64,000 nt of DNA. Source: Actinomycetales bacterium. GTDB lineage: Bacteria > Actinomycetota > Actinomycetes > Actinomycetales > CAWJMD01. The position numbers and the translations under genes are program-made. Positions 16,577 through 46,995 of this stretch are shown piece by piece (position 1 is the stretch's first letter; each line of letters opens with the position of its first letter). Under the pieces are notes generated by a model, which saw only the letters and a program-made list of their open reading frames with translations, was not told the origin of the DNA and searched no databases. The DNA is taken from positions 68,142 to 132,141 of the forward strand of contig JBKECN010000015.1 in assembly GCA_047974565.1 (NCBI GenBank), given 5' to 3'.

Positions 16577-16607
16577 GGGGTCTCCTGGTGGGATGGTCGG
16601 GGTGGTC

Positions 16608-17291
16608 TCAGGCGGCCACGGGCAGTTCGTCGCCGGAGCGACCGATGATGGTGTCGATCGCGTCGGCGAACGACCGGCCGGGTCCGAGCCCGGCATGGGC
16701 GGTGGGGCCGGCGGCGGGCGGCAGTGAAAGTACGCACCGGGCGCCGAGTCCCCGGGCCAGCGCCACGTCGCCGGCGGACGAACCCAGGACGACGACCTCC
16801 CGGGGTGTCAGGCCCAGCGCCCGCACTGCTCGCCCGCCCAGGTCGTCGACAGCCCGGCCGGGGCTAGTTCCGCGGCGTGCTACGACCACGTCCACTAGCT
16901 GGCTCAGGCGCGCGCGCTCCACGAGAATCTGCGCGACAGAGGCAAGCTCGTCGGCCACCACCGCGATCCGGATGCCTCGGGAGGCGAGCCGGGCCAGGCC
17001 GGCTCGTACCTGCATCGGGCAGGTCGGCGCGGCGCCGTCGACGGTCTGGCGCACCGCGTGTCGGCGATGCTCGGCCAGCACCAGGCGGGCCACGGTGGTC
17101 TGCACGTCGCTGCGCGCGTCGCCGGCAGCGATCTGCGGGACGGCTCCGGACAGGGCGGCGTGCAGGGGGACGGGCCGATGGTGGCCGGGCCCGGAGCCGA
17201 GCCGGACCTGCTGGCCGTGCGCGGTCTTCGCGGCGGTGCCGATCAGGGTCCGGTGTAGGTCAATCACAACGCCACGTACAGGGGTGCTCAT
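16608..17291 (-). CDS. HAD-superfamily hydrolase/phosphatase (IndB/MinC-like position)
   Basis: 3' 227 codons of track ORF 16608..17828. ATG 17291 is preceded by GAAGGAGG and lies 11 nt after the NRPS stop. N-terminal VVIDLHRTL in the HAD motif I position and a C-terminal VVVLGSSAGDV segment; the HAD call rests on these plus position and length, and the motif I Asp pair is not canonical. Confidence 0.7.
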   Translation of the reverse strand: MSTPVRGVVIDLHRTLIGTAAKTAHGQQVRLGSGPGHHRPVPLHAALSGAVPQIAAGDARSDVQTTVARLVLAEHRRHAVRQTVDGAAPTCPMQVRAGLARLASRGIRIAVVADELASVAQILVERARLSQLVDVVVARRGTSPGRAVDDLGGRAVRALGLTPREVVVLGSSAGDVALARGLGARCVLSLPPAAGPTAHAGLGPGRSFADAIDTIIGRSGDELPVAA

Positions 17292-17302: not shown

Positions 17303-17533
17303 TCACATCCGGTATTCGGGTTCCTTGCACAACAGATCGCGCTTGCCGGCGATCTCGGGGAGATAGACCTTCGCCCGCCAGTCGCTCTCGGGAACTTCCT
17401 CCAGGGCGATCGACACCGCACCGGGGGCGCAGCCAAGAGCGCTGCTGACCAGGCGGGTCATGTCGTGGGCCAATCGGGCGCGAAGTTCCGGGTCGAGTTG
17501 GACGGGGAAGTGTTTGACGCTGACGTGTGGCAT
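17303..17533 (-). other. PptA-type tautomerase (4-OT superfamily) unit, in frame with the NRPS but with its own SD and ATG-Pro start
   Basis: MPHVSVKHFPVQLDPELRARLAHDMTRLV...SIALEEVPESDWRAKVY...EPEYRM (76 aa). From memory this resembles E. coli PptA (MPHIDIKCFPRELDEQQK...). GAGGAG lies 5 nt upstream of ATG 17533. Confidence 0.75.
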
Positions 17534-20500
17534 GACGTCTCCTCGGGGGTGGGGGGTGCTGAGCAGCTGAGGCTGGGCGGGCTCGGATTCGTGGTGGGTG
17601 AACCCGCGATGGTGGGGTCTGGAAGGGGCCGGACGCCGGCCCGGGCTGGTGGACGGGACGGGCCTGGTAGATGGGCCCGGCCTGGTAGATGGGACCGGGC
17701 GGGTGGATGGGTGATGATCGTGGCCGCTTTCCAGGGCGGCGCCCACGGCCGTGATCAATCTGGCGACCTCCGGTGGGCGCAGCACCGAGTAGTGGTCCGA
17801 GGGCATCTGGACGGTGGTCGGGTCGCACACCGAGAAGCGTTGGCTGCCTTCGAGGAAGGAGTAGTCGTCGCCCTGAGCCTTGACCACCGTGATGGGGGCC
17901 CGCACGGTACGCCCGGTGAGTTCGTGGAAGGTATAGGTCGACTCGTAGGTGTGCTCCACCAGCCTGGTGACCCGAAGGATCAGCTCCTGGTCCAGTCCCG
18001 GCAGATGACGATCGAGGAAGTCGGCGAACGACTCGGCGTCGTGCACGGCGGCCCGGCAGTCGCGCAGGACCTGGCTGGCTGGCAGCTCGGCCAGGAAGAC
18101 CGACAGCAGGATCGTCAGGAAGTCCGGCGATCGGTAGTCGGCCTTGCCCGAAGGAGCACCGGCCCAGGGGCCTTGGGTACTGGGGGCTTTCGGCGCGCCG
18201 AGCAACGGTGAGCCGGGCGCGACCAGCACCAGTGCGCTCACCTGCGCTCCGGCCTGCTCAAGTTGGTACGCCGCCTCGAACGCCACCCGGGCGCCGAAGG
18301 AGTAGCCGAGGAGTGAGTACGGACCATCTGGTTGCCGCCGCCGGATCAGCTCGACGTCGGCGCTGGCCATCGAGGTGATGCCGTCGAGCACGGGTTCGCC
18401 GGGATTGATGCCGCTGGCCTGGATGCCGAGAACATCCCGGTCACTGGCCAGACCGTGAGCCAGCGGCGTCAGGTTCATCGGGAATCCGCCGAGCCCGGGC
18501 CAGCAGAACAGTGCATCGCCCGGCCGCGCACCCTTGCCCGGCGGCAACCCCTTTCCGGGGCTGGCAAGTCGTACCAGGCGGTTGGGCTTCTCGTCTGCCG
18601 GCTCGGAGTTGCCGGCCCGTCCGATTGGCACCGAGGCGGTGCCGGCTGGGTCGGTTGAGCCGCGCCGGTCGCCGTGAGCTGCTTCCTCGGGGTGGGTCGG
18701 TCCGCCTGTGGACGCCGCGGCACCGTCCAGCAGGCCTGCCAGCGCGCGTGGCGTGCTGTGCTCGAAGATCGCCTGCAGCGGCAATCTGGCCCCCAGGCGA
18801 TCGTTGAGCCGGTGGATGAGCTGGACGCTGGTGAGCGAGTCGCCACCGATGGCGAAGAAGTCGTCGACCACCGAGGCGCTGTGTGGCACCAGTTCTTGCC
18901 AGATGGACAACACCTGAGCCTCGCTGGGCGTTGCCGGGGGTACCGACTCCCGGTTCCGGGCAGTGTCGTCGGCGATTCGGCGCAAGGCCACCAGATCCGT
19001 CTTTCCTGTTGCGGTGGTGGGGATCTCGTCCAGGACGTGGATCTGCCGGGGCACCATGTAGCGGGGTAGCGTCCGGGCCAGTTCGTCGCGCAGGATCTCC
19101 GCCGGGCCTCGGCTGTGCACCCGGTCCTGGGCCATGTCACGGGCGGCGATCTGAGCCTGGGTGACGGGGCCCGCCAGCGCGAAGTAGGTCAACTCGTCGT
19201 GGCCGGTGAGTTCGCGGTACCGCGCGGCCGATGGAAGCGGCCTACCGGTCAGCGAGCTGTAGCCCGCCGACATCAGGCCGATTCCACCTCCGGCGGCCTG
19301 CAGGTGGTGCATCGCCCGCCCGAGTTGCACGAGGCCACGCCAGCCGTGTCCGGTCGAGGTGGTGAGCAGCACGCCGAAGGCCGCGTCGTCGTAGCTGGCC
19401 TGGTTGATGGCGATGACATCGCGGCGCCGGATCGTATCCGGTCCGAGGTGCTGCCACCGGGCACCGGCCCTGGTAAGCCCGGGTGCCAGGCCCGGCACCC
19501 GACGGGCGTGACCCTGCAGCAGGATGCCGACCTCGGCGGGCAGTGTGCGCGCCGGCCCCGGATGCACCCGCACCGCGGCCAAGGCCACCGCCTCGTCTCC
19601 GAGCCCCAGCAGATTCGCTGCCAATGCAGGGATCTCGGTGGTGCTCAGGCCGAGACCGGCCAGTGCGCGGTCCAGCGCACCCAACAGGTGTCCGGCCTCC
19701 AGATGCAGTACCTCATCGACGTTGGTCACATAGACGCTGGTGATCGCCGTCCGGATGCCGACCAGGTGCACCTCCAGCAGCGGTTCACCGGCCGGGCAGT
19801 CTGCCGGCGCAGCGAGATCGCCGAACAACGGCGTGGACGCCTCGACGTCGACCCGGTCCAGCCGGTGGGCGTACTGGTCGAAGTAGTAGAGACCATCGGG
19901 CAGCCCGGCGATTCCGGCGCACCGCAGGTAGAGCTGAGTGGCCACCAGGGCACCGGGGGAGGCGTAGGCGAACTTCGGCAGCAGCCGGTCCGGGCTCTCG
20001 AACGGTCCGAGCCAGCGCAGCAGCCGCCCCACCCCGTCCAGATCCGGCAGTCGTCCGGCCTCCGGGACGGGATCGTCAGTGACGCAAGGATTCTCAGGTG
20101 GTTGGCCGGCACGGGCCAGCCACTCGCGGATGGTGTCGGCGTCCACGCCGCTGCCTTCGAAGATCCGGTAGGTCTTGCGGGCGAAGACCTCTCGCACCTG
20201 CTCGAGGCTGGGTTCGGCGCCCGGCAATGGCAGGCCCGGGCCGGTCAGGTCGCGTCGGCGTCCGAGCTGGGCCAACTGAGCGCGGACCTGCACCCGCGAA
20301 CCCTTGGAGCTGTGGTGGCCGCCACCCTCACCCTGATCCATCAACGCGGCCTCCTCGGAGTCCAGCCCGACGAAGGCGACCAGGCCGGTGCATCCGGTGC
20401 TGGGATCCTCATGCGGCACCACCACTGCCTGACGGATCCAGCGGTGTTCCTCGACGGCGTTGCGGACCTCGTCCAGTTCGATCCGGTGGCCGTTGATCTT

Positions 20501-21811
20501 CACCTGGGTGTCGTCCCGGCCTACGAAGCACAACCCGGCCCGCTCATCCCAGCGCACCCGGTCACCGGTGCGGTAGGCGCGCACCTGCCGTCCTTGTGCG
20601 TTCGCCCGGGTGAGGAAGCGCGCCGCAGTCTGCTGCGGGTCTGCGACATATCCGCGGGCCACCTGCGGGCCAGTGATCACCAGTTCACCCACCTCGCCGG
20701 GCGCCACCGGGGCGAGATCGTCGTCCAGGACGGTGAGTTCGTGCCCGTCCACGGGATTGCCGATCGGCACGGTCGGGGTGTCGAGGGCGGCCGCGGAGTC
20801 GGCGGTGAGCACCTGCGCGGTGGCGTTGATGGTGGTCTCGGTCGGGCCGTAGAGGTTCACCAGGCGGGCCGTCGGCAGAGCGGCCAGGAGCCGCCTGGCC
20901 AGCGCGGTGGCCAGCACCTCCCCACCGCTGTACAGGTCGCTCAGGCTGGTGCAGTCGGCCAGTTCCGGGTGCGCGGCCAGCGCCGTCCACAGCGTCGGAA
21001 CGCACTGCACGGCGGTGATCTGCTGCTCCCGCACCAGCCGGAGCAGACGCTCCGGGTCCCGATTCGTGCCCGACTCGGCGACCACCACGGTGGCGCCGCA
21101 GGCACTGGCCAACAGTTCCCACTGGGCGGCGTCGAAGCCGATCGGGGTCTTGAACAGCAGCCGGGCCCGGGGGCGCAGCAGACCGCTGCCTCGCAGCCAC
21201 GCCAACTGATGCCCCAGACCGCCGTGCTCGACCATCACCCCTTTGGGGCGGCCGGTGCTGCCGGAGGTGTACACCACGTATGCCAGGGCATCCGGCGGGG
21301 GAGTGTTCGGGCCAGGCTGCCGGGGGGTATCCGTGCCGGACCGGGCGGCCAGGTCACGCACGGTGCTGAGCACCGCACGTGGTGCCACCTCCTCGGCTCG
21401 TCCGGCCAGGGCGGCGTCGACGACGAGCACCCGGACGCTCGCATCGCCGGCCATCAACTCCACTCGAGCGGTCGGCAACGACACCGGCAGCGGCACATAG
21501 CCTGCCCCCGCGAGCAGGACGCCCCAGGCGGCGACCACGAGGTCCACTCCAGGCTCCATGAACAGCCCGACCCGGTCCTGCGGGCGCACCCCGAGGGTGC
21601 GCAAGCCGGCGGCAACCCGGGTGGCGCCGGCCCACAGGTCGGCGACGGTGAGGATGCAGCCGGTGGCCGGCTCACACACGGCTGGTCGGCCGGGATCGGT
21701 GAGCAGCTCCTGGCGCAGCAGCTGCACGGGTGTGGGGCCGCTACCGTGGGGCGGGTGTGTGGGCGCGCTGGGGTGGGTGGCTGCGGGGGCCACCATCAGG
21801 TCGACGGTCAT
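17303..21811 (-). CDS. Single-module NRPS, A(Ox)-T-TE with in-frame C-terminal tautomerase (indigoidine-synthetase BpsA/IndC/MinA-type architecture)
   Basis: Track ORF 17303..21850; ATG 21811 lies 10 nt after the DsbA-like stop. A3 YTSGSTGRPKG, A5 NLYGPTE, A7 YRTGD, A8 GRDDTQVKINGHRIELDEV. About 460 aa are inserted before A9 LPRYMVP and A10 ATGKTD. T motif is FFAIGGDSL and TE motif is GYSFG. The last 76 aa are PptA-like. Confidence 0.9.
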   Translation of the reverse strand: MTVDLMVAPAATHPSAPTHPPHGSGPTPVQLLRQELLTDPGRPAVCEPATGCILTVADLWAGATRVAAGLRTLGVRPQDRVGLFMEPGVDLVVAAWGVLLAGAGYVPLPVSLPTARVELMAGDASVRVLVVDAALAGRAEEVAPRAVLSTVRDLAARSGTDTPRQPGPNTPPPDALAYVVYTSGSTGRPKGVMVEHGGLGHQLAWLRGSGLLRPRARLLFKTPIGFDAAQWELLASACGATVVVAESGTNRDPERLLRLVREQQITAVQCVPTLWTALAAHPELADCTSLSDLYSGGEVLATALARRLLAALPTARLVNLYGPTETTINATAQVLTADSAAALDTPTVPIGNPVDGHELTVLDDDLAPVAPGEVGELVITGPQVARGYVADPQQTAARFLTRANAQGRQVRAYRTGDRVRWDERAGLCFVGRDDTQVKINGHRIELDEVRNAVEEHRWIRQAVVVPHEDPSTGCTGLVAFVGLDSEEAALMDQGEGGGHHSSKGSRVQVRAQLAQLGRRRDLTGPGLPLPGAEPSLEQVREVFARKTYRIFEGSGVDADTIREWLARAGQPPENPCVTDDPVPEAGRLPDLDGVGRLLRWLGPFESPDRLLPKFAYASPGALVATQLYLRCAGIAGLPDGLYYFDQYAHRLDRVDVEASTPLFGDLAAPADCPAGEPLLEVHLVGIRTAITSVYVTNVDEVLHLEAGHLLGALDRALAGLGLSTTEIPALAANLLGLGDEAVALAAVRVHPGPARTLPAEVGILLQGHARRVPGLAPGLTRAGARWQHLGPDTIRRRDVIAINQASYDDAAFGVLLTTSTGHGWRGLVQLGRAMHHLQAAGGGIGLMSAGYSSLTGRPLPSAARYRELTGHDELTYFALAGPVTQAQIAARDMAQDRVHSRGPAEILRDELARTLPRYMVPRQIHVLDEIPTTATGKTDLVALRRIADDTARNRESVPPATPSEAQVLSIWQELVPHSASVVDDFFAIGGDSLTSVQLIHRLNDRLGARLPLQAIFEHSTPRALAGLLDGAAASTGGPTHPEEAAHGDRRGSTDPAGTASVPIGRAGNSEPADEKPNRLVRLASPGKGLPPGKGARPGDALFCWPGLGGFPMNLTPLAHGLASDRDVLGIQASGINPGEPVLDGITSMASADVELIRRRQPDGPYSLLGYSFGARVAFEAAYQLEQAGAQVSALVLVAPGSPLLGAPKAPSTQGPWAGAPSGKADYRSPDFLTILLSVFLAELPASQVLRDCRAAVHDAESFADFLDRHLPGLDQELILRVTRLVEHTYESTYTFHELTGRTVRAPITVVKAQGDDYSFLEGSQRFSVCDPTTVQMPSDHYSVLRPPEVARLITAVGAALESGHDHHPSTRPVPSTRPGPSTRPVPSTSPGRRPAPSRPHHRGFTHHESEPAQPQLLSTPHPRGDVMPHVSVKHFPVQLDPELRARLAHDMTRLVSSALGCAPGAVSIALEEVPESDWRAKVYLPEIAGKRDLLCKEPEYRM
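17726..18928 (-). other. Thiolation (PCP) and thioesterase domains of the NRPS
   Basis: GGDSLTSVQLIHRL (Ser attachment site). TE with LFCWPGLGG, GYSFGARVA and a C-terminal DH pair. Boundaries are approximate. Confidence 0.75.
19136..20233 (-). other. Ox (nitroreductase/SagB-like FMN oxidase) domain embedded between A8 and A9 of the NRPS
   Basis: Roughly residues 540-905 of the track ORF interrupt the adenylation domain (RKTYRIFEG...LPKFAYASPGALVATQLYL...AINQASYDDAAFGVLL...GLMSAGYSS). Boundaries are approximate. Confidence 0.7.
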
Positions 21812-21821: not shown

Positions 21822-22436
21822 TCAGCTGGTCTCGAGGTCGCCGCGGCCACGCTTGTACTCGACGAACTGCCGGTGCCTGGATAGGCGCACGACCGCGTCG
21901 AAGATGTCCACCGCGTCCTGACCGCGGGGGATGCCGGTGAGCACCGGCCCGAAGAAGGCCTCGCCCTCGACGTGGATGATCGGTGTGCCCACGTCCTCGC
22001 CCACCGGCTCCAGTGCCAACCTGGTCCTGGCCCGCAGTACCGCGTCCCAGGAGGGATCGTCGGCGGCGGCGTCCAAGCCTGCGTCCAGGCCGGCGACCCG
22101 CAGGGCGTCGGTAACCATCGCCCGGGTGTCCCGCCGGCCCTCGACGTGCCGCATCCGGCCGTAGGCGTCGTAGAAGGAATCGAACGAGCCGGTACGTGAC
22201 TGCAGGGCGGCGGCGACCCGGGCCGGGCCCCACGCCTGGTCGTTGAACTCGCGGTACCAGTCGTCCAACTCGCGTCCTTCGTTGATCACCGAGAGGCTGA
22301 CCAACTCCATCCGCACGGTCGCGGCTCCCTTGGCCATCACCTCCAGCAACCATCTCGAGGTGATCCAGGCGAACGGGCAGGACGGATCCACGAAGAGGGT
22401 CACGTCCGGGGTCGGGGTGTTATTCGGTTCTTTCAT
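21822..22436 (-). CDS. DsbA-like thioredoxin-fold protein
   Basis: 204 aa. VTLFVDPSCPFAW (CxxW-type thioredoxin motif position) and C-terminal GTPIIHVEGEAFFGPVL. First gene of the minus operon. Confidence 0.7.
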   Translation of the reverse strand: MKEPNNTPTPDVTLFVDPSCPFAWITSRWLLEVMAKGAATVRMELVSLSVINEGRELDDWYREFNDQAWGPARVAAALQSRTGSFDSFYDAYGRMRHVEGRRDTRAMVTDALRVAGLDAGLDAAADDPSWDAVLRARTRLALEPVGEDVGTPIIHVEGEAFFGPVLTGIPRGQDAVDIFDAVVRLSRHRQFVEYKRGRGDLETS

Positions 22437-22847: not shown

Positions 22848-23975
22848 GTGCTCTTGTCCACCCGGTCCCAGCGAGATCACCCGGGCCGCTGCCTGCCCGG
22901 TGGGCCGTCGGGGAAGGTGTCCAGCAACGAAAGCCCGTACCCGCCCCTGGCCGCGGTGTCCGAGGCGATGACCGCCTGGAACCCGGCGCTCAACAGGTAC
23001 CCGGAGCGACACCCAGAGCGCCTGACTCTCGCCCTGGCGGCCCACCACCGGGTCAGCCCCCAGGAGATCACCGTGGGCACCGGCTCGGTGGCCGCCCTGC
23101 AGTACCTCGTCCAGGCGAGTGTGCCGGCCGGGGCCGAACTCGTCTACGGCTGGCGCAGCTATGAGACCTACCCGCGGCTGGCCCGGATCAACGCCGCCCA
23201 CGCGGTCCAGGTGCCATTGCGCCAGGAGTACCTGGATCTGGGCGCGATGGCCCGCGCGGTGACCTCACGCACGGCCGCGATCATCGTGTGCAACCCCAAC
23301 AACCCGTCCGGCACCCTGCACTCCACGGCCAGCCTGGACGACTTCCTGCGACAGGTGCCCCGGAACGTCCTGGTCATCCTCGACGAGGCGTATTGGGAGT
23401 TCACCGGAGTCCCCGAAGACGCCAGTGGGACGCGGCTGTACCGGAACCATCCCAACGTCGCCGTCGTGCGCACCTTCTCCAAGGCCTTCGGCCTGGCCGG
23501 CCTGCGGGTCGGCTATGTGATCGCCCGACCCGAACTCACCGCCTTGGCCCGGTTGTGCGCGGTCCCCTTCGGCGTCAGCGCCGGTGCCGAGGACGCCGCG
23601 CTCCGTGCACTCGAGCACCGCAGCGCGCTGCGGGAGCGGGTGGCGGGCATCGTCTCCGAACGCGAGCGGATGTGGAAGCACCTGACCGGCAACGGTTTCC
23701 ACGTCCCGCCGAGCAGATCGAACTTCCTGTGGCTGACCGGCCTCGCCGATCAACCCGGCCTCGTCAGTGCCTGCGCCGATGCCGGAATCACCGTGCGCGA
23801 CTTCCCGGGCGAAGGAGTCCGGGTCACCGTCGCCACCCCCGGTGTCAACGACCTCGTGTGCGCCATCGCCAGCCGGTTCGCTCCGGCTGACCCCGACCAC
23901 CGATCAGCGGCCGGCACCACCTGCAGAACCCGACCACGCGCCACGGCGCCCCTGCGGAGAGGACACCCGACATGA
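22848..23975 (+). CDS. Class-II (HisC-like) aromatic/histidinol-phosphate aminotransferase
   Basis: Track ORF 22692..23975. GC3 rises only after about 22845. GTG 22848 has GGAGG 4 nt upstream. Motifs SSNESPYPP, NPNNPSG, RTFSKAFGLAGLRVGY (PLP Lys). Confidence 0.85.
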   Translation: MLLSTRSQRDHPGRCLPGGPSGKVSSNESPYPPLAAVSEAMTAWNPALNRYPERHPERLTLALAAHHRVSPQEITVGTGSVAALQYLVQASVPAGAELVYGWRSYETYPRLARINAAHAVQVPLRQEYLDLGAMARAVTSRTAAIIVCNPNNPSGTLHSTASLDDFLRQVPRNVLVILDEAYWEFTGVPEDASGTRLYRNHPNVAVVRTFSKAFGLAGLRVGYVIARPELTALARLCAVPFGVSAGAEDAALRALEHRSALRERVAGIVSERERMWKHLTGNGFHVPPSRSNFLWLTGLADQPGLVSACADAGITVRDFPGEGVRVTVATPGVNDLVCAIASRFAPADPDHRSAAGTTCRTRPRATAPLRRGHPT

Positions 23976-26584
23976 CACACCTGGCAATCCTGGAGTCCAA
24001 CACCTCCGGGTCCGGCTTCGACACGATTCGCGCGGCCAAGCGGCTCGGCTGCCGGGTCACCTTCTTCACCTCCGGGCTGGACCGGTACCACGCCGCCCCC
24101 GGCGGACGCGCCTGCCTGGACGAGTGCGTTGACGAGATCGTGCTCTGCCCCACCCACGACCGGGTTGCCCTGACCCAGGCAGTCCGGGACGCGCATCGCA
24201 CCGATCCGTTCGACGGCTTCTGCTCGGTCGCCGAGTACGAGGTGGTGGACGCGGCCGCGATCGCCGAAGAACTCGGGCTGGCCTCCCCCGGCTCGACCGC
24301 AGTGGCCACGGCCCGCAACAAGATCCGGATGCGCCGCGTCTGCTCGGCCGCCGGCGTACCCACACCCCGCTTCGCTGCCGTGGCAGGTGTCGACCAGGTG
24401 GCCGAGGCAGTGGCGCACACCGGTCTGCCGTGCGTGGTCAAGCCCGCCGACGAGACCGCCAGCGCGCAGGTACGCCGCTGTGACACCGTCGACCAGGTCC
24501 ACGAGCATGTCGCCCGGGTGCTGAGCCAACCCCGCAACATCCGGGGACAGCGCCGCCACCCGGAGGTCCTCATCGAGGAGTTCCTGCCCGGCTTCGAGGT
24601 GAGCGTCGAGGTGCTGGTCACCGCCGACGGCGCCCGGGTGCTGGGTGTCACCGACAAGTGGGTGAGCGGCCACGGCAGCTTCGTCGAGCTCGGCCACACC
24701 TTCCCCAGCCAACTGCCGCCGGACGAGACCGCAGCTTGCGCCGCAGTCGCTGTCGACGCCGTGCAGGCGATCGGCCTGCAACTGGGACTGCATCACGTCG
24801 AGGTCCGCCAAAGCCGTTCCGGCCCCTGCCTTGTCGAGGTCAACCCGCGTCCGGCGGGCGACCGGATCCACGACCTGGTGGATCTCGCCCTTGGTGGCTT
24901 CTGCCTGGAGTTCGTGGTGCGGCAGAGCCTGGGGGAACCGGTCGAGCTCGACACCCCCGTGGTGGCGCGGCGCGCAGCCGCCATCCGGTACCTGATCAGC
25001 GCACCGGGAACCGTGACCGGGGTGCACGGCCTGGAGACCGCCGCGACCCTGCCCGGTGTGCAGGCCGCCGTTGCCGGGGTTCGCCCGGGCGACCAGGTGC
25101 AGCCGCTGAGCCGCAACGAGGACCGCACCGGCTACGTGCTGGCCACCGGAGCCGACGCCTTCACCGCCTCCCGGTGGGCCGAAGCCGCCGCGCTGCAGAT
25201 CGACATCCGCACCCAGGATGCCTCCGCAGAGCCGTCCGAACCACGTCAGGCGCATCACCAGTGCGGAGGTCCCGGCACCGCCTCAGTGCCCGCCACCAGG
25301 CAGTCGACCGGCCAGGCACCGGACTCGGCAGGCGTGCTCGTCATGGTGATGCCCTACCGGGCGTTCGTCGACAAGGCCACCGCCGCCGGTTATCGGGTGC
25401 ACGCCCTCTGGGACACCGCCGTCGCCGAACGGCTCTATCACCAGGACGCCGGGCGGTACCTCGACGAACTCGGCCAGGTCGCCGAGAGCCTGCAGTTCAC
25501 CGACTTCGACGACGAGGACGCCTACCAGGGCGCCCTGGACGAACTGGTGCTTCGCCACCGCCCAGACCGCCTCCTGCACTTCGGGTCCGAGGAGTCGATG
25601 CCGGTCGCCTACCGGGTGGCCCACCGTCATGGCCTGGAGTCCAACCCTCCCGAGGCGATCGCCTGCCTGAACGACAAGGCGGTCATGCGGCGGGCGCTCG
25701 CCGAGGCCGGGGTATCCCCGGTGCGAGCGGTGCTCGTCGACTCACCAGCGGACCTGGCCCACGTGCTCGCCGACACGACGTTGCCGGTCGTGGTCAAGCC
25801 GACCGGACTCTCCGGAAGCCGAGCAGTGCAGCGCATCGACGACCGGAGTCAGCTCCCCGGCTACCTCGACTCGCTGGCGCACTATGACTACACCGGGCCG
25901 TTGCTGGTGGAGGAGTACCTCGACGGGCCCGAGTTCAGCGTGGAGACGGTGAGCATCAACGGCCTGGCACATGTGGTCGGTGTGACCCGAAAGTCGGTCG
26001 GGCCGGCACCACTGTTCGTCGAGACCGGCCACGTGCACCCGGCCCCCGAGTCCGAGGCGGCGTTGGTTGCGGCCGAAGCGGTTCGGCTGCTCGAGGTGGC
26101 CGGCTACCAGTGGGGTCCCGCCCATACCGAGGTCCGGCTCACCCGCCACGGTCCGCGGATCATCGAGTCGCAGGCCCGCCTCGGCGGCGATCGGATCCCC
26201 CGGCTGGTGCACCTGGCCACCGGCATCGACCTCGAACGTGAGGTGACCTGCACCCTGTCCGGCAGCTGCGTCGGCCTTGTCCCGCAGCACCGGCGGGTCG
26301 CCGCCATCGACTATCTGGAACTACCGGTCGGAGTGGTTCTGGCGATCGACGGCCTCGCCGCGGTCCGCGAACTGGCCTACGTGGACGAACTGAAGGTGCC
26401 CTGGTCCGTCGGCGACCGGATCACCCCAGTGCTGGACACCTGGTCCCGGCACGGTCACGTGATCGTCAGCGCCGACGACCACGACACGCTGCAGGTGCGC
26501 CGCGATCAGGTCCGCGAGGCGATCCTCACCTGCTTCACCATCGACACCCAGGGCCAGGACGACGACTGGCGGGCCGCCTCATGA
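23972..26584 (+). CDS. Fused double ATP-grasp ligase (two complete ATP-grasp modules in one 870-aa protein)
   Basis: Module 1: ARNKIRMRRVCSAAGVPTPRF...LPCVVKPADETAS...EEFLPGFEVSVE...HHVEVR. Module 2: LNDKAVMRRALAEAGVSPV...LPVVVKPTGLSGS...EEYLDGPEFSVE...AHTEVRL. ATGA overlaps at both ends. Confidence 0.85.
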   Translation: MTHLAILESNTSGSGFDTIRAAKRLGCRVTFFTSGLDRYHAAPGGRACLDECVDEIVLCPTHDRVALTQAVRDAHRTDPFDGFCSVAEYEVVDAAAIAEELGLASPGSTAVATARNKIRMRRVCSAAGVPTPRFAAVAGVDQVAEAVAHTGLPCVVKPADETASAQVRRCDTVDQVHEHVARVLSQPRNIRGQRRHPEVLIEEFLPGFEVSVEVLVTADGARVLGVTDKWVSGHGSFVELGHTFPSQLPPDETAACAAVAVDAVQAIGLQLGLHHVEVRQSRSGPCLVEVNPRPAGDRIHDLVDLALGGFCLEFVVRQSLGEPVELDTPVVARRAAAIRYLISAPGTVTGVHGLETAATLPGVQAAVAGVRPGDQVQPLSRNEDRTGYVLATGADAFTASRWAEAAALQIDIRTQDASAEPSEPRQAHHQCGGPGTASVPATRQSTGQAPDSAGVLVMVMPYRAFVDKATAAGYRVHALWDTAVAERLYHQDAGRYLDELGQVAESLQFTDFDDEDAYQGALDELVLRHRPDRLLHFGSEESMPVAYRVAHRHGLESNPPEAIACLNDKAVMRRALAEAGVSPVRAVLVDSPADLAHVLADTTLPVVVKPTGLSGSRAVQRIDDRSQLPGYLDSLAHYDYTGPLLVEEYLDGPEFSVETVSINGLAHVVGVTRKSVGPAPLFVETGHVHPAPESEAALVAAEAVRLLEVAGYQWGPAHTEVRLTRHGPRIIESQARLGGDRIPRLVHLATGIDLEREVTCTLSGSCVGLVPQHRRVAAIDYLELPVGVVLAIDGLAAVRELAYVDELKVPWSVGDRITPVLDTWSRHGHVIVSADDHDTLQVRRDQVREAILTCFTIDTQGQDDDWRAAS

Positions 26585-28482
26585 GTACCACCCGCGCCGT
26601 GGAATCCGTTGTGACACCGGCCGAACCCTTACCCGGCCCGATCCGGCTCCGAATCGGGGTCAACTTCGTCCAGCGTCTGGTCGACTCGATGACCTTGGCG
26701 TTCATGGCCATTCACCTGGCCGGCCTATTCGGCGTCGCGGTGGCCGGGTTGATCACCACCGCTGTCATGGTGGTGGCCACCGTCGGCACCGTGGTCGGCG
26801 GCTCCGCAGCCCAGCGCTGGGGTAGGCGTCGCCCGTTGCTGGCCGCCGAAGCCCTGGTGGCCGTGTCCTTCCTGGCCATGTCCTTCGCCGACGCCAGCCG
26901 GCACGGGGCCCTGGTGCTGGCAGTCGGCTATGCCGCGAGCAAGTTCGGCGCCGGCTTGGCGGTCCCGGCCAACGAGGCGATGCTGGTCGACCTCAGCACC
27001 CCGCAGAATCGCACCCGGATGTACACGATCAACTACTGGGCGATCAACCTGGCGATCGCGATCGGGGCACTGGCCGGTGCCTACCTGTTCGGCCTGCACT
27101 TCCAGTGGGTGCTGGCCGGCGCGGCCCTGCTGATGGGCCTGGTCTTGTGCACCACCCTGATCTTCATCCCCGAGACCGCGCCGACCGGTACGTCAGCCGA
27201 CACCCCCGGGCGACCCCGCGCGTCCTACCGACGGGCGCTGGCGAACCGGCCCTTCATCTACCTCGCGCTCGCCGCGACCCTGCTGATGACGGTGGAGTTC
27301 CAACTCGTCAACTGGATCGCGGTGCACCTGGCCCAAGACTTCGGCCCGCAGAACCTCATCGCACTCGGCTCCCGGACGGTGACCGTGGACGGGGTGGAAC
27401 TGCTCGGCGTGCTGCGCGCGGAGAACACCGTCCTCGTCGTGGTGGGAGCCTTCGTGGTGGGCAGGCTGCTCGCCCGAGTGCCGCTGGGGGTGCGGATGAT
27501 CACCGGTGCAACCCTCTTCGTGGCCGGCTATGTGGGCTTGGCCCTGGGCGGCTCGATCTGGTTCCTGATCGGGGCCGTCGTCGTCTTCACGATCGGCGAA
27601 CTGACCGAGGCGCCCAGCCGCCAGGTACTGCTGGCCGAGCTCGTGCCCGAAGACGACCGGCCGCGTCACCTCGCGGTGTACGCGCTGCACATCCGGATCG
27701 CCCTGGTCCTTGCCGGGCTGAGCCTGACCGCCGGCGCCTTCGTGGGGCCACGGGTGATGGCCGCGGGGTTCGCCCTGCTCGGGGCGGCCGTGCTGCTGCT
27801 CTACCGGGCCGTGCTGTCCGGTAGAAACCGCCGCAGCCCGGGCCGGCCCCGGCACCGGGCACACCGTCGGACGCGGGTGTCCGGTTCTGTCGACGCGACG
27901 CGACGCGGTAGCACCGAACCCGCCGATCGCGTCGATCCCGCACCCAACGGCTCACGCCCGGAGGACGCCCACCGAGCCGGCGACCGCGTGAGCACCGCGG
28001 GAGGACAGCAGCAAGACGGTGTGGAACGCGCCGGTGCCGGCGAGCACGCCGCGTCGCCGGAGCACCGTTCAGGGAGTCCGGCTCCCAGCGCGCCGGCAGC
28101 GAATACTGCTCCCGCGCAGACCGTCTCGATCGAGATTCATCGACCGGGCGACAATGAGCTGGCCGAACTGCGCAGCATCCTGGACGGCATCGACGACTCG
28201 CTGATGCTGACGCTGGACGCGCGAATCCGCTGTTGTGTGCAGATCGCCTCGGTGAAATCCAGGTACGGCATCGCCATGATGCAGCCACACCGAATCGGTT
28301 TCGTCCACCGCCGAGCGGACGACTTCGCCGGCAACCATGACGTGGATGCTCGCTTCCTGCATCGCCTCTACGACCTCCTCATCGCCGAGACCTGCCGGGT
28401 GGAGGACGAGTTGATGTCCACCACCAACCCGGTCACACCCCCTCGCGTCCCCTCGTCCAGAGAACCGGTGAGCACCCCATGA
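26581..28482 (+). CDS. MFS transporter fused, via a ~110-aa Arg/Pro/Ala-rich linker, to a C-terminal AroQ-type chorismate-mutase-like domain
   Basis: Residues 1-412 hold about 12 hydrophobic helices. Residues ~525-612 read ELAELRSILDGIDDSLMLTLDARIRCCVQIASVKSRYGIAMMQPHRIGFVHRR...FLHRLYDLLIAETCRVE. There is no stop between the two parts. Confidence 0.8.
   Translation: MSTTRAVESVVTPAEPLPGPIRLRIGVNFVQRLVDSMTLAFMAIHLAGLFGVAVAGLITTAVMVVATVGTVVGGSAAQRWGRRRPLLAAEALVAVSFLAMSFADASRHGALVLAVGYAASKFGAGLAVPANEAMLVDLSTPQNRTRMYTINYWAINLAIAIGALAGAYLFGLHFQWVLAGAALLMGLVLCTTLIFIPETAPTGTSADTPGRPRASYRRALANRPFIYLALAATLLMTVEFQLVNWIAVHLAQDFGPQNLIALGSRTVTVDGVELLGVLRAENTVLVVVGAFVVGRLLARVPLGVRMITGATLFVAGYVGLALGGSIWFLIGAVVVFTIGELTEAPSRQVLLAELVPEDDRPRHLAVYALHIRIALVLAGLSLTAGAFVGPRVMAAGFALLGAAVLLLYRAVLSGRNRRSPGRPRHRAHRRTRVSGSVDATRRGSTEPADRVDPAPNGSRPEDAHRAGDRVSTAGGQQQDGVERAGAGEHAASPEHRSGSPAPSAPAANTAPAQTVSIEIHRPGDNELAELRSILDGIDDSLMLTLDARIRCCVQIASVKSRYGIAMMQPHRIGFVHRRADDFAGNHDVDARFLHRLYDLLIAETCRVEDELMSTTNPVTPPRVPSSREPVSTP
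28153..28416 (+). other. AroQ chorismate-mutase-like domain (PapB-like candidate: 4-amino-4-deoxychorismate mutase)
   Basis: Helical CM_2 pattern L..LR..LD.ID..L..LL..R......I...K. The only in-frame alternative start nearby is GTG 28021. Confidence 0.65.
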
Positions 28483-30605
28483 ACATCCTGCTGATCGACA
28501 ACTTCGACTCCTTCACCTACAACCTCAGCCAGTACCTCGCCGAGGTGAGCGGACAGGTCCCGACCGTGGTCACCAACACCACCCCGTTCGGCGACCTGGA
28601 CTGGCAACGGTTCGACGCCGTCGTCATCTCACCTGGACCTGGAAGGCCGGACCGGGCAGTCGATTTCGGGATCAGTGCCAGGGTTCTTCGGGAGACCGAG
28701 CTACCGGTGCTGGGAGTGTGCCTGGGGCACCAGGGCCTGGGCCACGTCTTCGGGGCGACGGTTCGGCATGCTCCCGAGCCGGTGCACGGGCGCAGTTGGG
28801 ACGTGCGTCACGACGGTCGAGAACTCTTCGCCGGCCTGCCCGACCCGCTGCAGGTCATCCGATACCACTCCCTGGCACTGACCGACCTGCCACCGGAGTT
28901 GGAGGTCACCGCCTGGACCCCGGAGGGAGTGGTGATGGGCATCCGGCACACCGAGCGGCCGATGTGGGGTGTGCAGTTCCATCCCGAGTCGATCGGCAGC
29001 GACGGTGGCCACCGGTTGCTGGGGAACTTCCTCGACCTCGCCACTGCTGCGGCTCACACAGATCGACCGCCCCGCGGGCGGGCGATCGACCTGGACCGTC
29101 GCTACCAGGCCCGGGTGCGAATCCTGCACCGCGACCTGGATTCGGAGACCGTCTTCAGCACGCTCTTCGCCGATCACGATCGCTCGTTCTGGCTGGACAG
29201 CAGCGCCGTCGAGCCGGGGGTGTCCCGGTTCTCGTTCATGGGCGCCCCGGACGGTCCGCTCGCCGAGACCGTCGAGTACGACGTGACCAACCGGCAGGTG
29301 AGCCTGACCCGAGCAGGCGCACCCGAGAGCGGCCCCGATTCGAGCGAGATCTTCGAGGTCGAGTCGGTCTTCGACTATCTCGACCGGCAACTGCGCTCCC
29401 GGGTGATCAGCGGCACCGACCGGGAACTGCCCTTCGAGTTCTGCGGCGGCTACGTGGGCTATCTCGGCTATGAGCTCAAGGCCGAGACCACCGGGCGCGC
29501 CGCCCACCGCAGCCCCACCCCTGACGCCTGCCTGATGTTCGTCGACAGATTCCTCGCCTTCGACCACGAAGAGCGGCTCGTCTACCTGGTGGCCTTGGAA
29601 CAAGCCGGTCACGCCGACGAGGTGGAACGCTGGTTCGAGAACACCATGCACCGGTTGCAACGGCTCCCCGGCCGCGCCGAGCCGTCTGGGCAACCAGGTC
29701 ACGACGTGCGCCTGCACGGAATGGACACCCCGGATCTGGCACTGGCCCCGCGCCACGACGAGGACGCCTACCTGGACCGGGTGGACGAATGCCTCGAGGA
29801 GATCGCCGATGGGGAGTCCTACGAGATCTGCCTCACCAACAGCGTTCAGGCACCCCCGGTGGAGTCGCCCTACCGCACCTACCAACAGCTCCGGACGATC
29901 GCTCCGGTGCCCTATGCGGCGTACCTGGCGACCCCCCACGTCCAGGTGCTCAGTGCCTCGCCCGAACGATTTCTGCGGGTCGACTCCACCGGTATCGTGG
30001 AGTCCAAGCCGATCAAGGGCACCCGGCCCCGGGGTGAGACGCCCCGAGAGGATCTCGACCTTCGGGTCGACCTGGCAGCCAACCCCAAGGACCGGGCCGA
30101 GAACCTGATGATCGTCGACCTGCTACGCAACGACCTCAACGTCGTCTGCGAACCGGGCTCGGTACACGTGCCCACACTCTTCGACGTGGAGACCTACGCC
30201 ACTGTGCACCAACTGGTCTCGACGATTCGCGGACGGCTGCGGCCGGAGGAGTCCGCTGTGTCCTGCGTGCGGGCCGCCTTCCCCGGCGGATCGATGACCG
30301 GAGCACCGAAGGTGCGTTCCATGGAGATCATCGATCGCCTGGAAGGCGGGCCTCGCGGGGTGTACTCCGGCGCCCTGGGCTGGTTCTCGCTCACCGGGGC
30401 CGCCGACCTCAACATCGTCATCCGGACCCTGGTGGTCACGCCTACCGAAACCACCTTCGGGGTCGGCGGAGCCATCATCGCCCTGTCCGACCCGCGCGAC
30501 GAACTGCAGGAGACAGTGGTGAAATCGCGTTCGGTGGTCAGCGCCATGGCCGCCACCGACGATGCCGGCATCTACACCGGCACCGGCCTGAGGTTGGCGT
30601 CATGA
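28479..30605 (+). CDS. pabAB: Fused PabA-PabB aminodeoxychorismate synthase (PapA/CmlB-like)
   Basis: N-terminal GATase1 (ILLIDNFDSFTYNL, GVCLGHQ, FHPES). C-terminal chorismate-binding domain (PIKGTRPRG, FPGGSMTGAPK, GVYSGALGW). Confidence 0.9.
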   Translation: MNILLIDNFDSFTYNLSQYLAEVSGQVPTVVTNTTPFGDLDWQRFDAVVISPGPGRPDRAVDFGISARVLRETELPVLGVCLGHQGLGHVFGATVRHAPEPVHGRSWDVRHDGRELFAGLPDPLQVIRYHSLALTDLPPELEVTAWTPEGVVMGIRHTERPMWGVQFHPESIGSDGGHRLLGNFLDLATAAAHTDRPPRGRAIDLDRRYQARVRILHRDLDSETVFSTLFADHDRSFWLDSSAVEPGVSRFSFMGAPDGPLAETVEYDVTNRQVSLTRAGAPESGPDSSEIFEVESVFDYLDRQLRSRVISGTDRELPFEFCGGYVGYLGYELKAETTGRAAHRSPTPDACLMFVDRFLAFDHEERLVYLVALEQAGHADEVERWFENTMHRLQRLPGRAEPSGQPGHDVRLHGMDTPDLALAPRHDEDAYLDRVDECLEEIADGESYEICLTNSVQAPPVESPYRTYQQLRTIAPVPYAAYLATPHVQVLSASPERFLRVDSTGIVESKPIKGTRPRGETPREDLDLRVDLAANPKDRAENLMIVDLLRNDLNVVCEPGSVHVPTLFDVETYATVHQLVSTIRGRLRPEESAVSCVRAAFPGGSMTGAPKVRSMEIIDRLEGGPRGVYSGALGWFSLTGAADLNIVIRTLVVTPTETTFGVGGAIIALSDPRDELQETVVKSRSVVSAMAATDDAGIYTGTGLRLAS

Positions 30606-31531
30606 GTGACTGGGCGGCAAGCGCCCGGCACGCCGTGGTGGTCGGCGCCGGAGCCGTCGGCGCTCTGTTCGCCCACGCGCTGGCCGGTGATGGTGTGCAG
30701 GTGACGATGCTCGATCGCACTGCCCATCCGTCGGGTCCCTTCCCGGTGATCGAATGCGATGCGACCTCGTTGACGGTTCGCGCGATCGCCCACCTGGATC
30801 GGGCAGACATCGTGGTGATGTCACTGCCGGAGAAGGTTTCGATCGCAGCCGTGAGCATCATCGCCTCCGCGGTCCGTCCCGATGCGCTCATCGTGGATAC
30901 CTCGTCCGTCAAGACGGGATTCGCCGACGAGGCCCGTCGGCTCCCGCCGGGGAGCGCCGAGATTGTCGGGGTGAACCCGATGTTCGCCCCGTCCCTGGGC
31001 TTCCAGGGTCGCCCGGTCGCTGTCGTGAGCATCCGGCCAGGCCCGCGGGGTACCGGTTTCACCGACCGGCTGCGCAGCTGGGGGAGTCAGGTCGTCGAGC
31101 TCACCGCCCAGGAACACGACGCTCTGACCGCCCAGACCCAGGCCCTGACGCATCTGAGCGTGCTCGCCTATGCGCTCACCCTGGCCCGGGCCGGCACGTC
31201 CGTCGGCGACCTGGTGGAAAGCGCCCCGCCGCCCTGCCGGAGCCTGCTCGCGCTGGCGGCACGCATCCTGGGCGGCAGCCCGGAGGTGTACTGGGACATC
31301 CAGATCCAGAATCCGGGTGCGGACGAACTCCGCCAAGGCCTCGCCGATTCGCTCGCCGAACTCTCGAAAATCATCGCCAACGATGACTTCTCGGCATTCG
31401 CTGACCTGCGAGCCGAGCTCATCGGCTACTTGGAACCGGAACTGGACACCCTCTCCGACGACTGTGCCCAGATGTTCACCGCCCAGATGTCCTCTGCCCA
31501 GCCGGTGCCCGGAGTCGCGGATCCTCACTGA
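30602..31531 (+). CDS. Prephenate/arogenate-dehydrogenase-family enzyme (PapC-like candidate)
   Basis: Rossmann VVVGAGAVGALFA, then VDTSSVK...GVNPMFAP...QEHDALTAQTQALTH typical of the TyrA family. ATGA overlap with pabAB. Confidence 0.8.
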   Translation: MSDWAASARHAVVVGAGAVGALFAHALAGDGVQVTMLDRTAHPSGPFPVIECDATSLTVRAIAHLDRADIVVMSLPEKVSIAAVSIIASAVRPDALIVDTSSVKTGFADEARRLPPGSAEIVGVNPMFAPSLGFQGRPVAVVSIRPGPRGTGFTDRLRSWGSQVVELTAQEHDALTAQTQALTHLSVLAYALTLARAGTSVGDLVESAPPPCRSLLALAARILGGSPEVYWDIQIQNPGADELRQGLADSLAELSKIIANDDFSAFADLRAELIGYLEPELDTLSDDCAQMFTAQMSSAQPVPGVADPH

Positions 31532-31657: not shown

Positions 31658-33340
31658 ATGCAGACCTTCACCACCACTGCCAGCAGTAGCGTCCTGGACG
31701 TCGAGTCCCGGAACCTGCTTGCCCTGGACGACAGTGTCGGCGGCGGAAGCATCGTCGCCTCCGCCCTCGCCTACAGCACCGACCCGACCACGCATTTCCT
31801 GCACAGTGCAACCCCCGTCGACCTGCCGGACGGGCGACGCTGCAGCGATCTGAGCCTGCATGATCTGGACCAGGCCACTCAGAGCTGGTCGGCCTGGTAC
31901 CTCGACCGGGGCGTGCGACCCCGAGACCGGGTGGCGGTCTTCATCGCCGACTCGTTCGCCTACTCCATCCACTTCTACGCGCTGGCCCAGATCGGGGCGA
32001 TCGCGGTGCTGATCAACAGCAACGCCTCCGCGCAGGTGGCTGGCTCGCTGCTCGAGCAGACCGAACCGGTGGGCCTGTACGCCGACCCCGAGCACCTGGC
32101 CCGGCTCGCCGAGGTGCCTGGTTCGCTGTGGGTGGTCACGTCCGAGCAGGTTCGCGCGCCCGCGCCGGCCACCCTGGCGGACGAGCACCGGTACAAGCAC
32201 GTGGGCGAGGACCCCGTCGTCATCCTGCATTCCTCCGGTACCACCGGACGACCCAAGCCGACGATCCACACCCATGCCTCGATCGTGGCCGGGCCCAAGT
32301 TCCGGCTGGTGGATCACCGCGAGGATCCCCACGCCACAACGATGACCGCACTACCGCAGTCACATCTGGGGTGCATTGCCTTCACCACCTACAGCGTCCT
32401 GGCCGGGGCGCCCCTGGTGGCCCTTCGGGACTGCCCCGGCCCCGTGCTGGCCGAATCGATCGACCGGTACCGTCCGACCGCGGTGATGTCCTTCGCCCAC
32501 GCGTACAGCGAACTCGCCGCCACCACCATCGAGCCTGGCACCCTCGACTCGGTGGGCACCTGGATCTCCATCGGCGACGCGGTGCACGAGGCGCACATCC
32601 GCCGGGTCCTGGACATGCGCAGCCCGTCGCTGCCGGCGGCGACCTTCCTGGACCGGCTGGGTACCACCGAGCTCGGCTGGGGCGTGCTGTTGCAGACGCA
32701 CACCACCGGTGCCGGGGTGGCCGCCCGCAGCGCCGGCCGTCCGGTCGGGGTGGCCGAGGTGCAGGTGCTGCGCGCCGACGGCACGCCGGCCGCACCCCAT
32801 GAGCCGGGCTTCCTCGGTGCGCGCGGCCCGGCGATCACGCCCGGCTACTGGGCCAACTCAGCGGTCACCTACTCCTCGCGGCTGGCCGGCTACTGGCTGA
32901 CCGGCGACGTGGCGGTGTGCGACGAGGGCGGCAACTACTACCTGATCGACCGCGTGGTGGATGCCATCGACACCCGCGACGCAGTGGGCTACTCCGTGGC
33001 GATGGAGGAGGCCTTGCTCGGCGGACTACCCGAGATCGAGGAGGTTGCCGTGGTGGCCGGCCGATACGACTCGCGGACCGTGGCAGTGGCCATGATCAAG
33101 CCGAGCCCCGGCGAGCACGACCCCGACCTGCTGGTGCGTCGGGTGAACGAGGTGCTCGTGCGCAACGCTCACCCGCCGATCGCCTTCGTCGAACTCATCG
33201 ACGCGCACGACGATCTGCCCACCGGGGTTACCGGCAAGGTGCTGAAAAGGCAACTGCGTGAGCGGTATGCGACGCTGCCGGTGCTGCCCGACGCCCGGCT
33301 GATCGCGGCCGATCCGCTCCTGGTCCCGATGGCCGGGTGA
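31658..33340 (+). CDS. Adenylate-forming enzyme (acyl/aryl-CoA ligase-like, ANL superfamily)
   Basis: 560 aa. ILHSSGTTGRPKP, GTTELG, WLTGDVAVCDEGGNYYLIDRVVD, TGKVLKRQLRE. Preceded by a 126-bp lower-GC spacer. Confidence 0.85.
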   Translation: MQTFTTTASSSVLDVESRNLLALDDSVGGGSIVASALAYSTDPTTHFLHSATPVDLPDGRRCSDLSLHDLDQATQSWSAWYLDRGVRPRDRVAVFIADSFAYSIHFYALAQIGAIAVLINSNASAQVAGSLLEQTEPVGLYADPEHLARLAEVPGSLWVVTSEQVRAPAPATLADEHRYKHVGEDPVVILHSSGTTGRPKPTIHTHASIVAGPKFRLVDHREDPHATTMTALPQSHLGCIAFTTYSVLAGAPLVALRDCPGPVLAESIDRYRPTAVMSFAHAYSELAATTIEPGTLDSVGTWISIGDAVHEAHIRRVLDMRSPSLPAATFLDRLGTTELGWGVLLQTHTTGAGVAARSAGRPVGVAEVQVLRADGTPAAPHEPGFLGARGPAITPGYWANSAVTYSSRLAGYWLTGDVAVCDEGGNYYLIDRVVDAIDTRDAVGYSVAMEEALLGGLPEIEEVAVVAGRYDSRTVAVAMIKPSPGEHDPDLLVRRVNEVLVRNAHPPIAFVELIDAHDDLPTGVTGKVLKRQLRERYATLPVLPDARLIAADPLLVPMAG

Positions 33341-44623: not shown

Positions 44624-44659
44624 GGCGTGATCATGCCAGCACGCAGACCCTCAGGCACC

Positions 44660-46910: not shown

Positions 46911-46995
46911 CGGTTTCCTTCGACAGGAGTGGTCCGTCCGCCGGGCCGGCGGTGGTCTGGGTGTGGGGCGCGGGTGGGTGGTGTCGTCGGTGCGC

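Follow-up and report, generated by a model that had tools for sequence, protein, structure and literature searches.

What would a bacterium build with a protein that carries two ATP-dependent ligases on one chain? The question is raised by a 64,000-nt stretch of DNA (hereafter the window) on contig JBKECN010000015.1, which belongs to a metagenome-assembled genome (MAG) labelled 'Actinomycetales bacterium'. On its plus strand an open reading frame (ORF) at 23972-26584 encodes an 870-aa protein of the ATP-grasp superfamily (NCBI MFV0457624.1). Our answer, to which we give a probability of roughly 60%, is that the protein is a natural fusion of two L-amino-acid ligase (LAL)-type enzymes, here called M1 and M2, which form a functional pair and would carry out two consecutive ligations on a residue derived from p-aminophenylalanine (PAPA).

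The ORF starts with ATG, has zero internal stops and keeps a coding-type G+C content at third codon positions of 0.78-0.96 throughout, in a window of ~70% G+C. Its product matches the Pfam domains ATP-grasp_4 twice (E 5.7e-36), LAL_C2 twice (PF18603; E 1.2e-31, 109 bits against a cut-off of 29.4) and ATPgrasp_N once, at residues 20-103; the E-values that predict the ATP-grasp modules lie far beyond chance. M1 spans residues 1-417 (23972-25222, plus strand) and M2 residues 452-870 (25325-26581, plus strand), separated by a low-complexity linker of 34 aa (residues 418-451; 25223-25324, plus strand). In an AlphaFold2 model with a mean pLDDT of 84.5, two three-domain ATP-grasp units fold independently, one from residues 1-417 and the other from 452-861; each includes a Rossmann-like N-domain, and the linker between them is disordered (pLDDT <50). 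The lysine strand reads CVVKP at 154-158 in M1 and VVVKP at 606-610 in M2, and the glutamate motif is IEEFLPGFEVSVE at 201-213 and VEEYLDGPEFSVE at 646-658. A preliminary description of this DNA had reported two complete ATP-grasp modules from their VVKP and EE(F/Y)L-type motifs; both the modules and the motifs are present in the two halves.

The kind of ligase was judged from the ranking of profile hidden Markov model (HMM) and PDB scores. Among solved structures, the relatives of M1 and M2 are led by the LAL BL00235 (3VOT; E 7e-24 for M1 and 4e-21 for M2), followed by BacD, RizA and another LAL (30VH), and weak matches include D-Ala-D-Ala ligase, glycinamide ribonucleotide synthetase, PurT (E 6e-4) and biotin carboxylase (E 5.6e-4). 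Taken module by module, the best Foldseek fit is again 3VOT, with a TM score of 0.88 and a root-mean-square deviation (rmsd) of 2.9 Å, then BacD and RizA. The HMM for DdaF gives M2 76.7 bits, far under its cut-off of 840. The two additional single-module ATP-grasp genes that had been placed at 12908-15603 are also real. The first, AGB (14173-15603, minus strand, 476 aa), matches ATP-grasp_4 at 83.9 bits and LAL_C2 at 52.6 bits, and in the PDB finds 3VOT (E 4.6e-18) and BacD (2.5e-13). The second, AGA (12908-14176, minus strand, 422 aa), is divergent, with ATP-grasp_4 at 26.4 and LAL_C2 at 20.9 bits, both slightly below thresholds, and is closest to RizA (4WD3, E 2.8e-9). By these rankings all four modules belong to the LAL branch of the ATP-grasp superfamily.

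The genes around the fusion suggest what it might ligate. Its start overlaps the stop of a gene for a HisC-like class I/II aminotransferase (22848-23975, plus strand), likely the last enzyme of PAPA synthesis, and its stop overlaps the start of an ORF of 633 aa (26581-28482, plus strand) that combines a major facilitator superfamily (MFS) transporter with a PapB-like CM_2 mutase domain (CM_2 40 bits; TIGR01803 60.6 bits). The fusion gene is thus translationally coupled to the aminotransferase upstream and the exporter gene downstream. Next come, also on the plus strand, a PapA-like fused GATase/aminodeoxychorismate synthase (28479-30605; TIGR00553 pabB 357.7 bits, cut-off 328.4) and a PapC-like enzyme of the prephenate dehydrogenase family with both PDH_N and PDH_C (30602-31531). 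The predicted PAPA pathway is therefore complete in the cluster (aminodeoxychorismate synthase, CM_2 mutase, prephenate dehydrogenase-like enzyme and aminotransferase), and the full set adjoins the ligase gene. In the ORF at 26581-28482 the MFS and CM_2 parts are joined by a long low-complexity linker, and the independent Logan annotation likewise has one gene. It would be unusual for a mutase to be anchored in the membrane; alternatively, a separate PapB could be made from an internal start.

Further along the operon lies a gene for an AMP-binding protein (31658-33340, plus strand) that is a probable homologue of the ATP-dependent diazotases CreM, AvaA6 and CmaA6. It scores 344 bits with the AvaA6 model NF058622 (equivalog cut-off 975), compared with at most 160 bits for any CoA-ligase model. 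In the PDB it matches 9XB8/9XBS at 650 bits (~60% identity), 8ZTZ at 283 and 9BQ0/8TF7 at 259, and ordinary CoA ligases at no more than 100. 8ZTZ is presumably CmaA6 and 9BQ0/8TF7 presumably Tri17; the search labels call them just AMP-binding proteins. The entries 9XB8/9XBS are labelled only 'Fatty-acid-CoA ligase FadD'; 9XB8 is 100% identical to a gene product of Microbispora corallina NBRC 16416 (locus L058, 545-2164). No publication behind them was found in the literature searched, but the deposition of 9XB8 suggests that work on a related Microbispora pathway is in progress. A gene for a fused E1-like/YcaO cyclodehydratase homologue of SagD type follows (33511-36012, plus strand), its E1-like part matching TIGR03882, a leader-binding family of thiazole/oxazole-modified microcins, and then genes for a HisKA_3 kinase and a LuxR-type regulator.

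Because M1 and M2 are 34% identical and are encoded by separate genes in relatives, the fusion must join two distinct partner ligases and involves no duplication; the earlier label of a 'tandem double' protein is right about the number of modules and wrong in implying a duplicated one. We scanned 185,579 species genomes, one per species so that counts are species counts, and obtained 54 loci. M1 and M2 are both present in ~38 of these, from Amycolatopsis, Mycobacterium/Mycolicibacterium, Geodermatophilus, Pseudonocardia and MAGs. A word-indexed protein search, which under-reports homologues, had given just two full-length homologues and an impression of extreme rarity, which did not survive the scan with its ~40 apparent full-length matches. 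The opposite reading, a widespread fusion, was dropped in turn because tracing of ORFs showed M1 and M2 as two neighbouring genes in the ~38 loci. The split M1 has 415-427 aa and ends in TGA in nearly all of them; the split M2 begins 'M(A)NLVMVMPY...', and the two genes either overlap by ATGA or lie no more than ~130 nt apart (762 nt in locus L034), with M2 often in a different frame.

Fused genes occur only in the window (870 aa), in P0001 of locus L002 (823 aa) and in P0002 of locus L003 (837 aa), and their junctions differ. In a tree of M1 the three fall into three different clades, each with unfused nearest neighbours, which indicates that the M1-M2 fusion arose at least three times. The linker of the window protein has no homologue in related loci and is a gap in the alignment with P0001 and P0002; it probably stems from read-through of what was once an intergenic or tail sequence. 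The same enzymes are joined in other fusions too. M1 is ~50% identical to the N-terminal ATP-grasp half of many fusions with a CysK-like enzyme, recognized by its PALP domain (P0036 of Streptomyces canus is one), and the separate LAL gene that directly follows P0036 has 45% identity to M2. M2 is also fused to AGB (P0069, 861 aa; P0070, 831 aa), and two-module LALs of 800-860 aa make up ~17 of the best 150 cluster representatives. We regard these recurrent fusions as good evidence for a single pathway that employs M1, M2, AGB and the CysK-like enzyme.

Mapping of gene presence, absence and order over 58 loci shows that the M1/M2 pair almost always travels with a diazotase homologue (47-52% identity), an Rv2466c-like gene (in L002 at 9378-9983) and an MFS gene. 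Clusters of the Amycolatopsis/Mycobacterium type add a DAHP synthase, a CreE-like flavoenzyme, a CreD-like nitrosuccinate lyase (NF052556, 539 bits), an IlvE-like aminotransferase and a chorismate-binding enzyme with a GATase. Most Amycolatopsis-type loci carry three more genes (L002, 13746-16954), for a 447-aa protein with no Pfam match, an arylformamidase-like Cyclase and a DUF362 protein, which may make the aromatic amine in place of PapB and PapC. A second type, found in Amycolatopsis xylanica, Amycolatopsis sp. NPDC059657 and Microbispora, has PapA- and PapC-like enzymes, a closer diazotase (55-58%), DAHP synthase, a stand-alone M2-like LAL and an MFS gene, with CreE and CreD in some loci (L042). 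In M. corallina (L058, 3601-8656) a molybdopterin nitrate-reductase-like gene, a Pyr_redox_2/BFD NAD(P)H reductase and an MFS transporter stand instead of CreE and CreD, which suggests that Microbispora clusters make the nitrite for diazotization from nitrate. The S. canus type (L004) comprises an IndC-like non-ribosomal peptide synthetase (NRPS; 42%), a hexapeptide acyltransferase, M1-PALP, M2, a third LAL and an MFS gene, and has no diazotase. The window and L034 combine themes of the diazotase type and the S. canus type.

How would the fused enzyme work? By the established ATP-grasp and LAL mechanism, each module would bind ATP-Mg and convert a free carboxylate to an acyl-phosphate, which an amine would attack to give an amide, ADP and Pi. 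Context and the precedent of the rhizocticin ligases RhiM and RhiC suggest that M1 and M2 would, in two successive ligations, extend a pathway-specific non-proteinogenic amino acid to a di- or tripeptide. In the window this substrate is most likely PAPA or its diazotized derivative, and the adjacent MFS pump would export the peptide. Fusion would hold the two activities close together and in equal amounts. The whole cluster, judging by its gene content, probably makes a small peptide built around PAPA with a diazotized aromatic amine.

An unlikely, though not negligible, alternative is that the modules acylate a nitrogen generated by diazotase chemistry, giving an aryl-hydrazide comparable to the agaritine-type gamma-glutamyl arylhydrazides, or that they ligate a carboxylate that is not an amino acid. 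LAL-family enzymes do accept unusual partners, and the tight linkage of M1/M2 to the diazotase homologue, to CreE/CreD-like nitrite genes and to an Rv2466c-like thiol reductase, a candidate for reducing a diazonium, would fit such chemistry. What tips the balance towards peptide ligation is that M1 and M2 are nearest in sequence and fold to genuine dipeptide ligases and that an aminotransferase which would make an alpha-amino acid is translationally coupled to them; the hydrazine-forming step, for its part, is hypothetical.

Several points weigh against two paired ligations on a PAPA-derived residue. The Amycolatopsis-type clusters have M1 and M2 and lack PapB and PapC homologues, so that the common M1/M2 substrate need not be PAPA itself, and where M1 is fused to a CysK-like enzyme, as it often is, a beta-substituted alanine is the indicated M1 substrate. 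No CreE or CreD homologue that could supply nitrite occurs in the 64-kb window; as nitrite sources vary between related loci, this absence is compatible with a diazotase function there. The pTM of the AlphaFold2 model is 0.52, which leaves the relative placement of M1 and M2 undefined and makes channelling between their sites speculative. In addition, the window fusion is documented in one metagenome dataset only, and our literature search gave no paper on the substrate or product of any member of the M1 or M2 clades. Nor did it return any on diazotase with ATP-grasp or with aminophenylalanine, ATP-grasp ligases with PAPA, ATP-grasp with cysteine synthase fusion, indigoidine with ATP-grasp, Microbispora corallina with diazotization, or tandem or fused ATP-grasp LALs.

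Could the fusion be an artefact of assembly or sequencing, for example a 1-nt indel in the linker of an organism that has two genes like its relatives? We consider this very unlikely. The gene does come from a MAG, its linker has no coding periodicity in any frame (codon-position G+C 0.75/0.70/0.72), and frame +1 has a TGA at 25347 that coincides with the M2 start, just as M1 ends in some split loci (L010). Yet an independent Logan assembly of SRR30067260 carries the identical gene, and the linker contains no homopolymer run of 4 or more bases. L002 and L003 hold two more fused genes with different junctions, and a single error that both removed a stop and restored the frame is improbable.

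We aligned M1, M2, AGB and AGA with BL00235 and found both lysines (R/N-N/D-K and V-V-K-P) and the H-x-E and E-x-x-x-R-x-G-G motifs in all four; the E-E-[FY] hinge is kept in M1, M2 and AGB and is E-G-F in AGA. The residues concerned are K117, K157 (VVKP), E202/E203, H275-x-E277 and E289-x-N291-x-R293-x-x-G296 in M1, and K569, K609 (VVKP), E647/E648, H718-x-E720 and E732-x-x-x-R736-x-G738-G739 in M2. The four active sites are thus intact in their predicted catalytic residues. That one module is instead a catalytically dead scaffold or specificity subunit, leaving a single active site, is highly improbable. Tandem enzymes at times keep a degenerate half, and M2 has Gln where the E-x-N-x-R motif has Asn, but the active LAL BL00235 lacks this Asn too and reads EVGAR at the site. 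None of the key positions of M1 and M2, among them those for ATP and Mg binding and the catalytic Arg, varies between the three fused proteins. Split M1 orthologues and the M2-like genes that stand alone in Microbispora show the VVKP and E-x-x-x-R-x-G motifs as well, and where M1 and M2 are separate genes, both remain intact ORFs.

Carbamoyl-phosphate synthase (CPS) is the familiar enzyme with two ATP-grasp units on one chain, and ranking by Foldseek E-value does put CPS large subunits first, because CPS likewise has two ATP-grasp halves. These fits have TM scores of 0.28-0.34, rmsd ~26 Å and 13% identity, and together with the HMM scores they rule out CPS as the closest relative. The NCBIfam purT, purK, CPS and biotin-carboxylase models give M1-M2 40-65 bits against cut-offs of 300-1000 (TIGR01369 for CPS, 44.9 against 1027; purT, 54 against 502; biotin carboxylase, 40 against 768), and CPSase_L_D2 reaches 30 bits, in one module only of the 870-aa protein. 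A CPSase-type tandem signature (large-subunit sequence, oligomerization and allosteric domains, glutaminase partner) was looked for and not found. Despite the Foldseek order and the name 'biotin carboxylase' given to homologues by automatic annotation at the Joint Genome Institute, the chance that this is a tandem enzyme of primary metabolism (CPS, PurK/PurT or biotin carboxylase) is therefore close to nil, with CPS fits so poor, HMM scores so far under their cut-offs, the LAL-specific LAL_C2 present twice and the gene set in a secondary-metabolite cluster. It had been stated beforehand that LAL-type ligases would be contradicted if the modules grouped with PurK, CPS or biotin carboxylase or had lost catalytic residues; we looked for both and saw neither.

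The divergent minus-strand operon would supply a second set of ligations. It contains an Rv2466c-like gene (21822-22436), an NRPS gene (17303-21811), a small ORF with a weak match to haloacid dehalogenase (HAD)-like hydrolases (16608-17261), a CysK-like pyridoxal phosphate-dependent beta-replacement enzyme (15596-16696; PALP 246.7 bits, TIGR01136 350 bits), AGB, AGA and a DoxX gene. The PALP and AGB genes overlap by 8 nt and the AGB and AGA genes by 4 nt, which indicates that the three form one operon. With the PALP half of the ATP-grasp-PALP fusion of S. canus the CysK-like enzyme shares 59% identity, and it scores slightly over the cysKM cut-off; its homology suggests that it makes a beta-substituted alanine. 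The HAD-like ORF, lying in the gap between NRPS and PALP genes, recalls IndB beside IndC.

The preliminary description had set four ligase sites beside one single-module NRPS and derived a product of up to about five residues. The placement of all four modules in the LAL branch supports the ligase logic; the NRPS is not an elongation module, and the figure of five residues is baseless. The NRPS has the order adenylation (A) domain with an inserted oxidase (Ox), thiolation (T), thioesterase (TE) and tautomerase (Tau), and no condensation (C) domain. Its A domain is split between motifs A8 and A10 by a ~430-aa insert with a weak match to SagB-family dehydrogenases (E 7.5e-9, 35 bits), and after T and TE a C-terminal PptA-like tautomerase (72.8 bits) lies behind a Pro/Ser-rich repeat linker. 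The putative A-domain code for Gln, which we derived by hand against a GrsA sequence, is DAWQYGLINK and would resemble that of BpsA. The NRPS is 42-45% identical to those beside ATP-grasp-CysK fusions in S. canus (L004) and beside AGB/AGA homologues in L034. A-Ox-T-TE-Tau is the architecture of MinA and IndC, which convert L-Gln to the indigoidine monomer; indigoidine synthase and MinA cyclize and oxidize L-Gln to a pyridinedione (PMC6908994). On this domain architecture we rejected a role as peptide-elongating module; the NRPS is a predicted heterocycle maker and unlikely to lengthen a peptide chain by a residue. BpsA/IndC and MinA share its domain order, with Ox inside A and a C-terminal tautomerase, but the IndA/MinB C-glycosynthase of those systems is absent beside it. 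AGB and AGA, two more ligases of this kind, would probably add or build amide bonds on what the CysK-like enzyme and the IndC-like heterocycle synthase produce.

The Rv2466c-like gene (21822-22436, minus strand), of the DsbA-fold, mycothiol-dependent reductase family, directly adjoins M1/M2 in almost all related clusters, and its product could act in diazonium reduction or self-protection. The target of the YcaO protein, whose gene directly follows that of the diazotase homologue, might be a ligase-made small peptide and not a ribosomal precursor; a precursor peptide was sought in the 170 nt that precede the YcaO gene, a gap which held just spurious-looking short ORFs. No SagB-like dehydrogenase occurs nearby other than that within the NRPS. 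Directly beyond the left end of the cluster, genes for an ApbE-like flavin transferase and a Nuo51-like FMN/4Fe-4S protein (8267-11914, plus strand) may encode redox partners. Farther off, a TetR regulator gene stands next to minus-strand genes for an arginine deiminase/amidinotransferase-like protein, a 474-aa PALP enzyme and a zinc-type dehydrogenase (43859-48369), and a bacterial serpin gene (3312-4712, minus strand; Pfam Serpin 303.8 bits) beside a two-component system has no connection with the cluster. The chemistry to be expected is changed by three genes that did not figure in the preliminary description, those for the diazotase homologue, the CysK-like enzyme and the YcaO protein.

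Comparison with known systems shows what is familiar here and what is new. BL00235 (3VOT), BacD/YwfE (3VMM) and RizA (4WD3) share with the modules the three-domain fold, LAL_C2 and the catalytic residue pattern at ~15-24% identity; they are single-module enzymes of 410-470 aa, whereas the window protein has two non-identical modules per chain. In dapdiamide biosynthesis two ligases, DdaG and DdaF, act in turn to carry a warhead amino acid to an exported tripeptide. RhiM and RhiC, in rhizocticin biosynthesis (PMC13579937), are two successive LALs that likewise extend a warhead amino acid to an exported tripeptide, as we propose for M1 and M2. Both pairs are separate proteins, distantly related to M1 and M2, with phosphonate or fumaramoyl-diaminopropionate warheads, whereas we propose a fused pair acting on an aromatic amine or diazo residue. 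The CPS large subunit also has two homologous ATP-grasp units per chain, each with a different ATP-dependent step, but it arose by internal duplication and phosphorylates bicarbonate and carbamate, whereas the window protein joins diverged partner genes for a predicted amide ligation. The ATP-grasp-CysK(PALP) clusters (S. canus P0036, L004) share M1 (~50%), M2 (45%), PALP (59%), an A-T-TE NRPS (42%) and MFS with the window, yet fuse M1 to PALP rather than to M2 and lack diazotase and PAPA genes. The diazotases CreM, AvaA6 and CmaA6 are probable family members of the protein encoded at 31658-33340, and CreE- and CreD-like genes, as in the aspartate-nitrosuccinate nitrite pathway, occur in related clusters. 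The described diazotases act on acids derived from 3-amino-4-hydroxybenzoate, made with type II polyketide synthase or related genes, and ATP-grasp ligases or PAPA figure in none of their described pathways. Two non-identical modules on one chain and a genomic link to a diazotase homologue set M1-M2 apart from all characterized LALs.

A broader picture can be offered tentatively, and we hold it to be possible but doubtful. M1/M2 could be the assembly core of widespread, undescribed actinomycete pathways to short NRPS-independent peptides that contain a diazotized or N-N-modified aromatic amino acid. In the window, a PAPA-derived aryl diazonium could also couple to the IndC-like pyridinedione to give an azo- or hydrazone-linked peptide, as in the diazonium-mediated coupling of the tasikamides.

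LAL-type ligases offer a simple path, independent of NRPSs, to bioactive and 'Trojan-horse' peptides, and they are useful biocatalysts. The locus shows that tallying ligase domains next to any NRPS gene fails to predict peptide length. Its interest stems less from the fusion than from the cluster family, in which more than 40 actinomycete species have the M1/M2 pair next to a diazotase homologue and genes that form nitrite, and to which no product has been assigned. Should the product be a peptide bearing a diazo, hydrazine or azo group, these clusters would join ATP-grasp peptide assembly and enzymatic N-N bond formation, so far treated apart, and the fused protein would be a ready-made two-step ligase for tripeptides with unnatural aromatic residues.

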